This document shows, piece after piece, positions 47,101 through 59,100 of a DNA stretch of 64,000 nt. The stretch is taken from assembly GCF_011045215.1 (NCBI RefSeq), contig NZ_CP049201.1. One strand, 5' to 3'. The stretch is from Escherichia coli. Lineage in GTDB: Bacteria > Pseudomonadota > Gammaproteobacteria > Enterobacterales > Enterobacteriaceae. Each line of letters starts with the position of its first letter. Within the stretch, counting starts at the first letter, position 1. Position numbers: made by a program.

Positions 47101-50100
47101 ATCAGCAAATGATGGCGAAAATGCGACTGCGGCCAGTGCGCCGACCAGAAATTGCCCATCACATAATCGCTTTGTTGCTGCTCGCAGAGATCAAAACGGT
47201 ACATCGACTGCCAATGCTGATGATGATTAAACTGCAACACCCAATCATCACCCTCCTGCAACAACCGATACTCTCCGTGTGGCGTGGTCTGCACGAGATC
47301 GGGAACTAAACGAATCGGCGCGGTTAGCGTCTGCCCACCGAAACCGACATCAGCAATCCATTTTTCCTCTTCCAGTTCCACCAACAGCAAACGATGGGTG
47401 CGCGGGGGTAATGCTGGCGGATTTGATAACACTACCCGCCCTAACAAGCTGCGAACGTGAAACCCCAGCTCGCGTAACACCCGCTCAAACACGCCATTCT
47501 GCTCAAAACAGTAACCGCCACGACGGGCTATCACGAGTTTCTCTTCCAGCGATTGATCATCAAGCTGCATTTCCCTCGGCAGCAAAACGTCGAGGTTTTC
47601 AAACGGAATGGTGCAATTGTGTTTCAGGTGCAATGCACGAAGCGTATCAATATTGACCGCAGCAGTTCCCGACCAGTTAATACGGGCAAAATAGTGATTC
47701 AGAATGGGCGTCATCAGGCGTTTCCCTTAGTGGTTTTCTCAACTTATAACCTGGAATAGACGCCGCACCGGCTATTTTGTGCGATCGCGGACATGCATCA
47801 CGTTCGCAAATCGCCAATCCCGTTAATTTCGTTACTTATTGCGTTACGGACTACGCTTAAAAAAACCTTCTTCGCGAGGCGATACCATGAGCCGATTCAT
47901 CCCCATAGAATTACACCATGCCAGCCGTCTGTTAAATCATGGCCCAACTGTCTTGATCACCAGTTTCGATGAGCAATCCCAGCGGCGTAACATTATGGCT
48001 GCAGCCTGGTCAATGCCGGTGGAGTTTGAACCTCCACGCGTGGCGATTGTGGTAGATAAATCGACATGGACCAGGGAGTTGATTGAACATAACGGTAAAT
48101 TTGGCATCGTTATCCCGGGCGTTGCAGCAACTAACTGGACGTGGGCAGTGGGAAGTGTATCTGGGCGTGAAGAAGATAAATTTAATTGCTACGGCATTCC
48201 GGTGGTGAAAGGTCCGGTGCTTGGTTTGCCACTTGTTGAAGAGAAATGCCTGGCGTGGATGGAGTGCCGCCTGCTACCTGCGACTTCTGCGCAACAAAAA
48301 TACGACACGCTGTTTGGCGAGGTGGTATCAGCAGCGGCAGACGCACGGGTATTTGTCGAAGGCCGCTGGCAGTTTGATGATGATAAGCTCAATACGTTGC
48401 ATCATTTAGGTGCTGGCACGTTTGTTACCAGCGGCAAGCGAGTTACGGCAGGTTAAGCATTACATGCTGTAACCGGGTTTCTTTATCAAAGCCTCCATTT
48501 GGGGCGCGATTTCGGCATCCCAGATAGCTTGCCAAGATTCTGGTTGAATCTGCTGTAGAGCAATGCTTATCGAAATGTCTTTACTGTTCAGATGGCGAAT
48601 AATAACGTCGGTAATATCTGCAGCAAGTGCTGCTTTTTGTTGTTCGTCCAGTTCACGCGGAAAACATTTAATGTCGATGTGCGGCATGATTGTGCTCCTT
48701 TTGAAAGATGTCAGTAAAATTAACACACATTGTGAATGTCGTATGTCCGGTGATGCGTTTTTACGACAATAATGCCTACTTGAAATTGTAGATATTTGCA
48801 CTACACCCTTTTAAATAAAGCACCAACAAATCGTCAACTTGCAGAACATATTCTTCTGCCTACATACCATTAAGAAAACATCAAGTTTCCGACTTGCCAA
48901 TTTATTAATGCCCATTATAGACGCTGAAACAAGCCACGGACAAAGAAGATGCCAAAATTACCGGCGATGCAGAAAAACTCAACGAACCAGGGCAAGATTA
49001 CGAAAGCCCGCTCCCGCAAGGACTGACGCCAGATAGTTTCTGTCCATGGCTGCTTTTCGCATCTTACGTCTTAACCCTGCCTTGAATACCTTATCATTCG
49101 TCAAAATATTAATAGCAATGTGCCGTATCCCTGAAAATAATTCTGCAGCATTTCCTCTTCTTATTTTGCAGTCGTCTTCATTCATTACCACGTCCAGACG
49201 CCAGTGCAGCTTATTCTCCACGTGCCAGTGGTTTCGGATTGCTGTGGCGAACTTCTCTGCGGTTAAATCAGCAGAACTGATATAATATCTGACCGTCATT
49301 TCTGGCTCTTTCTTTTGTTCTGCTATTATTGACCGAAAGGAGACTGCCACGCATAATTTCTTCAGTCCTTTCCATTCAAACGTGAAATCAATAAGTTCAT
49401 CAGGGACATCGCAAACAATATGAAGACGGATTTCTTCTCTGCCGTGACTAAAATGCGAATTATTTAGTACAAAAAAAGCGGCGCACCTTGTTCTTTCCCA
49501 GATTCCTAATATGGCAACTTTAAGTTATCGCCGTCTATACTTATAGAAATTTCATCAGGGGTGACGTAAATAGAATTTTTTTCATCCTCAATTGCCCATA
49601 ACTGATTAATAAAAAAGTATTTTTTTCATCTAATAAAAAATTATCACATGTAGTAAAATTATTAATATCAAAAAAAATCATCAGCACAATTAATTTTTAA
49701 ATTTAAAAAATAAAGAAAAATATTATTGATTGATTTGAGTGTAAACCACTTGTCATTAACAAATTTATAGCCAGATGATTTTATAAAATAATAATTATCT
49801 CCTGGTATAAAGGCATACATATCATTTAAGGTTATACTCAACAAAAAACTACGACCTGGTTTAATAGTATTCCACCGTTCAGGATTCGTATTAATTTCAA
49901 AAGGACATGAACCACCTAAGTAGTCCAACGTGATATTCCCAGAGTTGATTCTGAATGGTTTTTTGCATATCGCATCATATTCATCTCCTTTTCCATCTTT
50001 TACTTTCATAGGTAGATAATATTTAGAAAAAAAATACGTGGTAGAGCTATTGTTAGTAAAGGTTATGTTAGCAAAAATCCTGTTATTTTTTTTACTCATA

Positions 50101-56100: not shown

Positions 56101-59100
56101 AAAGGTGTCCGGCTCCTGGCCGTCAACCTCCAGCGTAAAGCGCAGACCTTTTAAGGACATAAATACCTCTCAGACATATCAGCCTATATTTACCGTACCG
56201 CCACCAATGACCACGCCGCCGCAGTCAACAGCATCACCGCTTCTGGCGGCGGGCAGGCCGTCAATAAAGACGGTTGAAGAACCTCTGGCGATTTTACGGG
56301 GATGAGGGGGATGCTTCGGTTTAGCATGCGGCGTCAGCGGATCTCCCTGACGGGCTGCGGGGAGACCATCGATAAAAACGGTGGATGACCCGGCGGTGAT
56401 GACGGTCTCGTAATAACCGTCGTGCTGAGTGCCTTTGTCGGTGAGTTTGGCTGCTAAAGGCATAATTTCTCCTGTTCAGAATTTCTACAGCAGCAGGTTT
56501 CAAAAATCCGGAGAAATATTCAACGAAATATTAATCACTTCACCGGATATTCTGATACGTACCTTCACTGGTCTATTTAAGTAATACAAATTGTTGGCGT
56601 GTATTAAGTTCCATTTTGTTCTCCTTAATTATGTAAGGAGTATTTGATCATGTATAAGCAATAAAAACAGCTTCAGGAAATAAGGAATATCGCAATTTTT
56701 AAACATAAAATGCGAATCGTTCAATACAAAAAAGCAGCGTTGCGTAATCTTTCCCTGATTAAATACGCTACCGCCCTACCCTGATGACATGATCTGCACT
56801 GCACTATCATATCGACATGTTTCTCTACATGCGAAAAGATGTTTTATTTTCGGATTATATTAAATTGACATTTCATATAAAAAACGAAATTACATCAATC
56901 ATATAAATAATTGTACCAACTTTAATTACTATTCATAGCAAACAAATGGATATCCAGTTAACTACGCCAGTGATTCATTAACATTAACCTCCGGCATTAT
57001 TGTTAAATAATGACATTCCTTTTTAATACTTCTTGTAATTTCGGTAACTGACATACTGCATCAGCAATCGCACTGATATTCGTGGCATTATCCTGAAACC
57101 ATTCATGCCCAGGCCCCCATGTGCGCATAGTGCAAAGATAACAGTCCACCAGCGTTAGTTGCTCACCAAACGCATAAGGTTCAGCGGTCAATTGTGAATT
57201 CAGCCAGATATAAAGCGATTTACGATATTCAATAACATTCTTCTTTAACTGTTCAGGTGCGTCAGATGCCCAACGCTCAGGGTAATCGGCGAAAGTGAAT
57301 GTTGGATAGACATTAGCAACCAGCCAGACCAATAGCCGTTGAAACTGCTGACGTTCGGCGCGCCCAACCGGTGGCGCAAGGTCCGGGCGACGATCGAGAA
57401 CCATCAATGCAATCGCCGCTGTCTCCGTCATAATCTCGTCATTTTCCAGAGCCAGTGTCGGAACCTGACACAACGGGTTCAGGGTTTTCAATAACTCGCG
57501 TGAAGTTCCCTCGTGGTCAAAACCACTGACATCAACGAACTGATAAGGAATATCAGCTAGTGTTAGCATCAGCTCACTGATTGTAGAGCCCCATCCGGGT
57601 ACGCCATACACCTTAATCATATGCCCCTCACAATCTTTTAAAGATTAAGTGTAGGACAGTACACAGGTTAACCAGCAAAAGGATTTGTCATTTTTTCGTC
57701 AGTTGTATTGATCCCCTTCAGGATTGTAAGGGGATGTTTTGCATCGTTTATCGATAACGGGTAGGATGCTGCGCCGATAGTTTTATACCCATAAAGAATA
57801 ATGGTGATAACTATCATCGCCAGGATGAATAAACATTGTTCATGGCAACTTATATGACTTTTTCATTAAAGCAATCAGGGAGAGCAATGAGTAAACACGA
57901 CACCGACACTTCAGATCAACACGCCGCGAAACGCCGCTGGCTTAATGCCCACGAAGAGGGGTATCACAAAGCGATGGGCAATCGCCAGGTGCAGATGATC
58001 GCCATTGGCGGCGCGATTGGTACGGGTTTGTTTTTAGGCGCAGGAGCCCGACTGCAAATGGCGGGGCCAGCACTGGCATTGGTCTATTTGATCTGCGGCC
58101 TGTTTTCATTTTTTATTCTGCGTGCATTGGGTGAGCTGGTGTTACACCGCCCTTCCAGTGGCAGTTTTGTCTCTTATGCCCGCGAGTTTTTGGGTGAGAA
58201 AGCCGCTTATGTTGCGGGCTGGATGTACTTCATCAACTGGGCGATGACGGGGATTGTCGATATCACCGCCGTCGCTCTGTATATGCATTACTGGGGTGCG
58301 TTTGGCGGCGTGCCGCAGTGGGTCTTTGCGCTCGCTGCACTTACCATCGTTGGCACCATGAATATGATCGGTGTGAAATGGTTTGCGGAGATGGAGTTCT
58401 GGTTTGCGCTTATTAAAGTGCTCGCCATTGTGACCTTTTTGGTCGTGGGTACAGTGTTCCTCGGTAGTGGTCAGCCGCTGGATGGCAACACCACTGGCTT
58501 TCATTTAATCACCGATAATGGCGGCTTCTTCCCCCACGGTTTGCTGCCTGCGCTGGTGTTGATTCAGGGCGTAGTGTTTGCTTTTGCCTCCATTGAAATG
58601 GTGGGTACAGCTGCCGGAGAATGTAAAGATCCGCAGACCATGGTGCCTAAAGCCATTAACAGTGTGATTTGGCGTATTGGCCTGTTTTACGTCGGCTCCG
58701 TGGTGTTGCTGGTTATGTTATTGCCGTGGAGCGCGTATCAGGCGGGGCAAAGTCCGTTCGTGACGTTTTTCTCTAAACTGGGTGTGCCATATATCGGCAG
58801 CATTATGAACATTGTGGTGCTGACCGCTGCCCTCTCCAGCCTGAACTCAGGCCTGTACTGCACCGGGCGTATTCTGCGCTCGATGGCGATGGGCGGTTCC
58901 GCACCGAGTTTTATGGCGAAAATGAGTCGTCAGCATGTGCCGTATGCCGGGATTCTGGCGACACTGGTTGTGTATGTCGTCGGCGTATTCCTCAACTATC
59001 TGGTGCCGTCGCGCGTATTTGAGATTGTGTTGAACTTCGCGTCGCTGGGAATCATCGCTTCATGGGCGTTTATCATCGTGTGCCAGATGCGCCTGCGTAA

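Follow-up and report, generated by a model that had tools for sequence, protein, structure and literature searches.

Gene content of the pptA–yncG interval

The 64,000-nucleotide stretch of the Escherichia coli contig NZ_CP049201.1 (assembly GCF_011045215.1) analysed here, hereafter the window, carries an island of genes related to type VI secretion systems (T6SSs) between pptA and yncG. The interval runs along the minus strand from yncG (57003–57620) to pptA (within the 113-amino-acid open reading frame, ORF, at 48460–48801), and all island features described below lie on the minus strand. Module 1 (56463 to 51328) comprises the genes for PAAR, VgrG, a DUF2169 protein, Cpe1 and Cpi1; module 2 (51186 to 49505) comprises the remains of an older vgrG, an aspzincin metallopeptidase gene and the gene of a putative periplasmic partner. 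An earlier note on this DNA had listed seven minus-strand ORFs between pptA and yncG, all of which are present where it placed them, and its proposals of a PAAR protein, a VgrG, a DUF2169-sized adaptor and a PAAR-like/cysteine-peptidase effector are borne out by the profile matches given below. Its statement that the cargo families could not be named no longer stands: the effector and the small ORF overlapping it are Cpe1 and Cpi1, the adaptor belongs to DUF2169, and the HExxH ORF has an aspzincin fold. PAAR and VgrG were assigned with NCBIfam models at their curated cut-offs, and the cargo ORFs through Pfam, PDB and fold searches; the NCBIfam scan returned no match for DUF2169, Cpe1, Cpi1, the M35 gene or the partner ORFs.

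Outside the island, window positions 1–48776 and 57005–63869 are collinear with K-12 yddA to pptA and yncG to mcbR, respectively, at 97.6–98.8% identity, with a porin/leucine-rich-repeat patch (33793–36290) as the sole break. Because the remainder is collinear with K-12, no T6SS core genes (tssA–M, hcp, clpV) occur within the 64-kb window, as the note had observed; Rhs repeats and CdiA/CdiB are likewise absent from it. In K-12, the yncG–pptA interval contains yncH, the pseudogene rhsE, ydcD, yncI and the H-repeat gene ydcC, in agreement with the note, which placed rhsE and H-repeat genes at this locus. The G+C content is 55–63% in the PAAR gene and vgrG core and 27–39% in the cargo, a contrast that marks the mosaic make-up of the island.

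Module 1: spike, chaperone and the Cpe1–Cpi1 pair

All five genes of module 1 are intact and equal in length to their copies in B2 strains, with proteins that are 95.6–99% identical. The first (56179–56463) encodes a canonical PAAR spike-tip protein of 94 amino acids, which matches NF033420 across residues 1–94 of 94 (156.5 bits against a cut-off of 124) and is identical at 90 of 94 positions to the PAAR protein of the B2 T6SS-1 tail module. The second (54178–56160) encodes a VgrG/TssI spike protein of 660 amino acids matching TIGR03361 (601.3 bits, cut-off 186) and, as a second match, TIGR01646 (420.8 bits, cut-off 122), with gp27–gp5 spike domains spanning residues 8–519. It shares 631 of 660 residues with the VgrG adjoining cpe1 in FDAARGOS_1254. 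The core of the gene is conserved and common to other E. coli vgrG genes, and its AT-rich variable 3′ part (approximately 54178–54600) is specific to the Cpe1 module: over 54100–54500, the DNA is 99–100% identical to the B2 Cpe1 module and 46–59% identical to the vgrG found at pptA–yncG in LF82.

Next follows an intact gene (53025–54071) for a DUF2169 protein of 348 amino acids (PF09937, E=1.7e-72, model positions 7–294 of 294), identical to the B2 copy at 344 of 348 residues and assigned as a putative chaperone for a PIPY/DUF4150 tip. DUF2169 proteins are chaperones required for DUF4150 (PIPY) domains to build a functional tip on VgrG (PMC11883445), and the chaperone role proposed for the window protein is carried over from that work. 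The order vgrG, DUF2169, DUF4150-toxin corresponds to the minimal synteny type B of the same study, with the last two genes overlapping by 8 nt.

The effector gene (51593–53032) is intact and encodes Cpe1, a protein of 479 amino acids that joins an N-terminal PIPY domain (DUF4150, PAAR-like) to a papain-like cysteine protease toxin. In Pfam searches the N-terminus matched Tox-PAAR-like (PF13665, E=8.2e-12, residues 15–115) and the toxin part matched Peptidase_C39 (E=1.2e-5). Residues 338–479 are 100% identical to Cpe1tox in the crystal structure 9L5U_A (E=2.6e-94), and the whole protein is identical to the B2 copy at 473 of 479 positions. C362, H436 and the exosite residues L387, M390, A408, M426, W428 and V434 are all present, as is the Asp of the catalytic triad, since the sequence is identical to that of 9L5U_A. 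Directly downstream, and overlapping cpe1 by 26 nt, an intact gene (51328–51618) encodes the 96-amino-acid immunity protein Cpi1, which is identical to PDB 9L5U_C at 95 of 96 positions (the sole difference being G76N) and retains the interface residues I47, M61, M64 and K72. Close copies of both genes are already annotated as cpe1 and cpi1 in some RefSeq genomes.

In E. coli ATCC 11775, Cpe1 acts as a papain-like protease that cleaves GyrB and ParE (Song et al., PLoS Biol 2025, PMC12136450); both its toxicity and the killing by a Δhns ATCC 11775 donor with an active T6SS depend on C362, and Cpi1 blocks the hydrophobic exosite of Cpe1, not its active site (PMC12136450). The structure, targets and immunity mechanism of this pair are thus already known, having been published in 2025. 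GyrB/ParE cleavage and T6SS-dependent killing were established in that study for an identical toxin domain, and by analogy the Cpe1 encoded in the window would be expected to share them.

Module 2: a displaced aspzincin effector and its partner

Just upstream of the peptidase start lies the stub of a displaced resident vgrG (51131–51186), consisting of its last 17 codons and stop. The encoded peptide, LLFANDDFLSMEGHYGR, was recognized by tblastn through its similarity to the C-terminus of a Salmonella VgrG and is identical to the C-terminus of the 801-amino-acid LF82 VgrG at pptA–yncG; it thereby marks where the Cpe1 module meets the older one. The adjoining gene (50351–51141) is a pseudogene of an HExxH-containing, aspzincin (M35-fold) metallopeptidase effector. 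It is broken by a change from A8 to A7 at approximately 50707, leaving ORFs of 168 and 100 amino acids where intact copies elsewhere encode 263. The gene product was found to have the aspzincin fold. H162, E163 and H166 are invariant, and D183, which lies within the motif GGMxTxD and would be the third zinc ligand, is present in at least 90% of family sequences. A profile of the peptidase family matches AsaP1 (E=7.8e-7) over residues 255–337, within its protease domain; the single sequence searched against Pfam gave a weak match (E=0.0046).

The partner gene (49505–50327), which encodes a putative periplasmic immunity protein of 273 amino acids in LF82, is also a pseudogene, truncated by a change from T7 to T8 at 49677 to a 219-amino-acid ORF (49668–50327) that keeps its Sec-type signal peptide. 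Between 49440 and 51330, every indel that distinguishes genomes falls within an A or T run of 7–9 bases (at 51306, 50707, 50389, 50313, 50232, 50093, 50034, 49677, 49626 and 49583), and these run indels give many differing patterns of broken ORFs across strains.

Homologs of the aspzincin peptidase in Salmonella, in Buttiauxella, in an E. coli T6SS-2 cluster and on a metagenomic contig share a consistent setting. In every case, the gene overlaps a vgrG 3′ end that encodes a terminal 'FHFTDDDGxPY...' extension, and a gene for a signal-peptide protein of 265–308 amino acids, homologous to the window partner, comes next. The E. coli T6SS-2 homolog, P0023, is 30% identical to the aspzincin peptidase. 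The displaced vgrG, of which the window keeps a stub, is of the type with this 'FHFTDDDG' extension, which is missing from the C-terminus of the full-length window VgrG.

The partner family carries conserved cysteines. Sequence searches of the partner against Pfam and PDB returned nothing significant, and the fold search alone was informative: the structural model (pLDDT 85, 48 homologs) is a β-sandwich with the fold of the AsaP1 propeptide. This modelled fold suggests a split-zymogen effector–immunity pair. Tentatively, and at somewhat less than even probability, we propose that the family represents an undescribed split-zymogen T6SS pair, in which an AsaP1-like protease would be carried on a FHFTDDDG-extended vgrG and its partner, a descendant or mimic of the propeptide, would protect the producer as the propeptide inhibits its own protease. 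The proposal concerns the family rather than the window locus, because the pair is already dead in the window.

Periplasm-acting T6SS metallopeptidases with periplasmic immunity proteins have been described in Pseudomonas aeruginosa (the VgrG2b C-terminal domain with PA0261; PMC6899460) and in E. coli PAR (M35 with AKO63_2956; PMC10673891). These pairs follow the same logic as module 2, in which zinc-peptidase cargo encoded right behind a vgrG is followed by a signal-peptide protein; as differences, the module-2 peptidase is encoded by a separate gene rather than fused to vgrG, and both window genes are pseudogenes. Our literature search found no paper joining aspzincin with type VI secretion and nothing of use on the AsaP1 propeptide, and in the literature on VgrG2b/PA0261 and M35(PAR), where related logic is described, it found no mention of propeptide mimicry.

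Mosaic structure and origin of the island

Three segments of distinct affinity make up the island. Positions 49449–51186 are of the LF82-island type (98.7% DNA identity), positions 51184 to approximately 54600 correspond to the B2 Cpe1 module (at least 99% identity), and positions 54600–56600 hold the conserved vgrG core and the PAAR gene, with a switch in homology at 51184–51186. From the survival of the 17-codon vgrG stub and the DNA mosaic, we conclude that the Cpe1 module displaced an older module: it took the place of the variable part of the vgrG that was resident there and left the aspzincin pair orphaned. Module 1 reached the site by recombining in the conserved core of vgrG, and the junction at 51184–51186 is illegitimate. 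This conclusion rests on the cargo segment (DUF2169 to cpi1 with the variable vgrG 3′ part), which is 99–100% identical to the module at the B2 T6SS-1 tail. In FDAARGOS_1254, the same five genes form the tail of a complete T6SS-1 cluster (tssA–M, hcp and clpV) linked to aspV; in AHB7 they are found at the same fadE/yafV site. The segment cpi1–cpe1–DUF2169 occurs in 299 complete genomes at approximately 99.2% identity; in UTI89 and 536 it lies at approximately 266 kb, consistent with the T6SS-1-tail site.

The two closest known arrangements each share part of this mosaic. The Cpe1–Cpi1 module of ATCC 11775 and uropathogenic E. coli has the same five genes in the same order as the window. It differs in location, the window copy lying at pptA–yncG, approximately 1.4 Mb from the aspV T6SS-1 cluster rather than at its tail, and in what follows cpi1, which is the vgrG stub and aspzincin module in the window and directly an ISAs1 remnant in B2 strains; in addition, the window vgrG core is a distinct allele (81–91% identity over 54600–55100). 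The LF82 island (PAAR, the 801-amino-acid VgrG, M35 peptidase and partner) occupies the same site and shares the PAAR gene, the vgrG core, the aspzincin and partner genes and an ISAs1 remnant. Relative to LF82, the window vgrG has had its 3′ end from approximately codon 545 onwards, all but the last 17 codons, replaced by the Cpe1-type 3′ part, DUF2169, cpe1 and cpi1, and both the aspzincin gene and the partner gene are frameshifted.

Island boundaries and neighboring features

The whole island is bracketed by two opposite ISAs1 ends, corresponding to the 5′ and 3′ ends of K-12 ydcC. An ISAs1/H-repeat end remnant of approximately 130 bp (56604–56732, minus strand) lies between the PAAR gene and yncG and is 93.8% identical to the 5′ end of ydcC, and an ISAs1/H-repeat transposase 3′ remnant (48987–49449, minus strand), 98% identical to the 3′ end of ydcC, abuts pptA. 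The 123-amino-acid ORF at 48979–49350 is a remnant of the ISAs1 transposase (NF033564, E=2e-29, covering profile positions 241–314 only). ISAs1 remnants are also found after the Cpe1 module in B2 strains and between modules in LF82 and 33F4. Such copies may provide portable homology for the exchange of modules.

Between pptA and the adjacent ISAs1 remnant lies a 210-bp segment (48777–48986) that is absent from K-12, O145, 33F4 and PapM-32-1 but occurs in 2018-05-2CC and two draft assemblies, L020 and L023; the 2018-05-2CC annotation places a partial diguanylate-cyclase pseudogene right after the homologous stretch. The patch at 33793–36290 involves an OmpC-family porin gene (33509–34609), at the position of the K-12 yddL fragment, and leucine-rich-repeat ORFs unlike K-12 yddK and yddJ. 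A promoter and terminator scan gave 39 AT-rich consensus matches where 24 were expected and was thus uninformative.

Variation at pptA–yncG across genomes

The island was searched for in 5,426 complete genomes and in a number of draft assemblies. The content of pptA–yncG differs repeatedly between the genomes compared, in keeping with the earlier note's suggestion of a variable cargo hotspot; together with the vgrG–rhsE island described at this site in EDL933 (PMC7216683), the comparison identifies pptA–yncG as a hot spot across E. coli. Only one of the complete genomes, 2018-05-2CC, has 80% or more of the island at this locus, and there IS600 and a deletion have disrupted the vgrG and DUF2169 genes. 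The highest-ranking match among complete RefSeq genomes reaches 90% coverage of the island at 97.8% identity. Around 36 complete genomes are suggested to carry the recombinant island. Of these relatives, O145:H28, 33F4 and others lack window positions 52095–54686, and PapM-32-1 lacks 53197–55915; cpi1 is kept in all of these and in 2018-05-2CC. The exact sequence of the window VgrG is absent from the records searched. The intact arrangement occurs at the same site in several drafts, the closest being L023 (99.74% identity over 20 kb), and in the draft L027 both module-2 genes are intact as well.

Module 2 has a distribution of its own. Approximately 470 complete genomes match the peptidase segment up to 51186 and not beyond, and the rows sampled among them annotate a VgrG there. 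Most of these genomes probably have the arrangement PAAR–VgrG–M35–partner, the locus having been checked and confirmed in one of them, LF82. In CFT073, the partner gene is retained behind a different, shorter aspzincin module, and in ATCC 25922, a Nissle-derived strain and others the match is confined to the partner segment (49700–50339), a pattern of orphan immunity.

A further copy was observed in the draft L026 (GCA_910664935.1, OU349847.1), where positions 7217–12652 hold a 5.4-kb piece of the island that is 99.3% identical to window positions 50381–55816 and contains a truncated vgrG, DUF2169, cpe1, cpi1 and part of the M35 gene. It is flanked by P2-like phage genes, with a gpA-type replication gene and DUF2732 on one side and a portal gene on the other. 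The junctions were found in no complete RefSeq E. coli genome, and the piece reflects either an assembly error or its capture by a prophage hot spot.

Function and delivery

Taken together, the locus is very probably a composite auxiliary T6SS spike-and-cargo island in the pptA–yncG (rhsE) hot spot, which supports the note's reading of an orphan vgrG cargo island as an auxiliary island without core genes. The gene identities, their intactness, the mosaic and the distribution were established here, the biochemical activity and chaperone role are drawn from the literature, and delivery in this strain we infer. In the proposed mechanism, a VgrG trimer would form the spike, which would be capped by the N-terminal PIPY/DUF4150 cone of Cpe1, which the DUF2169 chaperone would keep secretion-competent; as an alternative, the cap may be the separate canonical PAAR protein. 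On firing of a T6SS encoded elsewhere, most probably the aspV-linked T6SS-1, Cpe1 would be delivered into a neighboring cell, where its protease (Cys362, His436 and Asp) would cut the ATPase domains of GyrB and ParE and so block DNA replication and chromosome segregation. Cpi1 would shield the producer by filling the substrate-binding exosite of Cpe1.

For active delivery by this strain we see only slightly better than even chances. Several findings speak against an island in working use. The other complete carriers examined have lost vgrG, DUF2169 or the 5′ half of cpe1 and kept cpi1, a pattern of loss that points to selection on immunity rather than attack. In 2018-05-2CC, the aspV T6SS-1 core is deleted and the island vgrG is broken by IS600, so that core and auxiliary island have decayed together; all that is left of the core (NZ_AP027877.1, 3660000–3678000) is hcp and a tssB stub of 156 nt, with an IS3-family element and a CP4-like island alongside. 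The cargo genes are rich in AT, and killing in the published assay depended on a Δhns donor (PMC12136450). Cpe1 matches the P(I/V)P(Y/F) motif only in part, since residues 29–32 read KVPF, with Lys in place of the first Pro. Finally, a canonical PAAR gene beside a DUF2169/PIPY set is an arrangement that is rare according to PMC11883445, and PAAR and PIPY caps would compete for one VgrG tip.

Much of this evidence would also be expected of a silent or decaying reservoir, with spike and toxin unexpressed or undelivered and the island held mainly since cpi1 protects against Cpe1-armed neighbors. The repeated loss of delivery genes with retention of cpi1 in O145, 33F4, PapM-32-1 and 2018-05-2CC, the decay of module 2 in the window itself, the missing T6SS-1 core of 2018-05-2CC, the 27–39% G+C of the cargo and the Δhns background of the published killing all fit such a reservoir. 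We nevertheless consider it unlikely, although a serious alternative: the five module-1 genes are full length even though the AT-rich cargo genes lie amid slippery A/T runs, the encoded proteins are 95.6–99% identical to functional B2 copies with every tested functional residue retained, the intact arrangement recurs in several independent assemblies, and PapM-32-1, the complete genome with the most similar flanks (99.3%), has a complete T6SS-1 core.

The same slippery runs raise the question of whether the module-2 frameshifts are phase-variable switches or sequencing errors, in which case the aspzincin pair would still be usable cargo. All distinguishing indels do lie in A/T runs of 7–9 bases whose lengths differ between genomes. 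However, the run lengths at 50707 and 49677 are the same in the window and in the related assemblies L020 and L023, which indicates inheritance rather than random read errors and led us to reject sequencing error; moreover, the cognate vgrG is cut down to 17 codons, and the FHFTDDDG extension, found with this effector family in all other cases, is missing from the window VgrG. Usable module-2 cargo is therefore most improbable. Lower still, and close to negligible, is the probability that the island is part not of a T6SS but of a phage tail, of an extracellular contractile injection system or of an Rhs/contact-dependent inhibition system. The VgrG fold is shared with phage gp27/gp5, and the L026 fragment lies amid P2-like phage genes, but the matches to the TssI and T6SS PAAR models of NCBIfam are far above their cut-offs, the identical module is contiguous with tssA–M, hcp and clpV in B2 strains, Cpe1 killing is tied to an active T6SS (PMC12136450), and the window has no Rhs repeats or CdiA/CdiB. 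A phage or extracellular contractile injection origin was rejected given this contiguity with the T6SS core and the L026 junctions, which no complete RefSeq genome shares.

Relation to other spike and toxin-displacement systems

The spike-and-cargo set of module 1 has counterparts in other bacteria. The Agrobacterium tumefaciens VgrG2–Atu3641–Tde2 set is one such DUF2169–PIPY–VgrG complex of synteny type B. Those of P. aeruginosa and Vibrio parahaemolyticus (PMC11883445) share with the window the order vgrG–DUF2169–DUF4150-toxin and matching Pfam domains; the window set differs in having a canonical PAAR gene immediately upstream and KVPF for P(I/V)P(Y/F). The history of the locus also resembles the displacement of Rhs and CdiA C-termini, and K-12 rhsE and the EDL933 vgrG–rhsE island occupy the same hot spot as the window. 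As in those systems, incoming cargo ousts an old tip and leaves an orphan effector and immunity gene downstream, beside H-repeat/ISAs1 sequence. Unlike them, the window encodes no Rhs protein, and what was displaced comprises the variable 3′ end of vgrG together with separately encoded cargo.

Significance

The components of the island are known and annotated and their arrangement is already present in public assemblies; a toxin system published in 2025 gains from this locus a chromosomal site and a history of recombination that can be clearly read, and otherwise the locus matters little. It does provide a worked example of vgrG-island evolution, in which cargo recombines in the conserved core, ousts the variable end and leaves a stub and orphans, and in which, at a later stage, the delivery genes decay and the immunity gene persists. 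The sole fresh lead is the family of aspzincin peptidases and propeptide-like partners. If our reading of the partner fold holds, the pair would be a zymogen in two parts, with the protease secreted and the pro-domain-like immunity protein in the periplasm, and, if true, such a split-zymogen pair would represent a route by which an immunity protein arises from a protease's own pro-domain.

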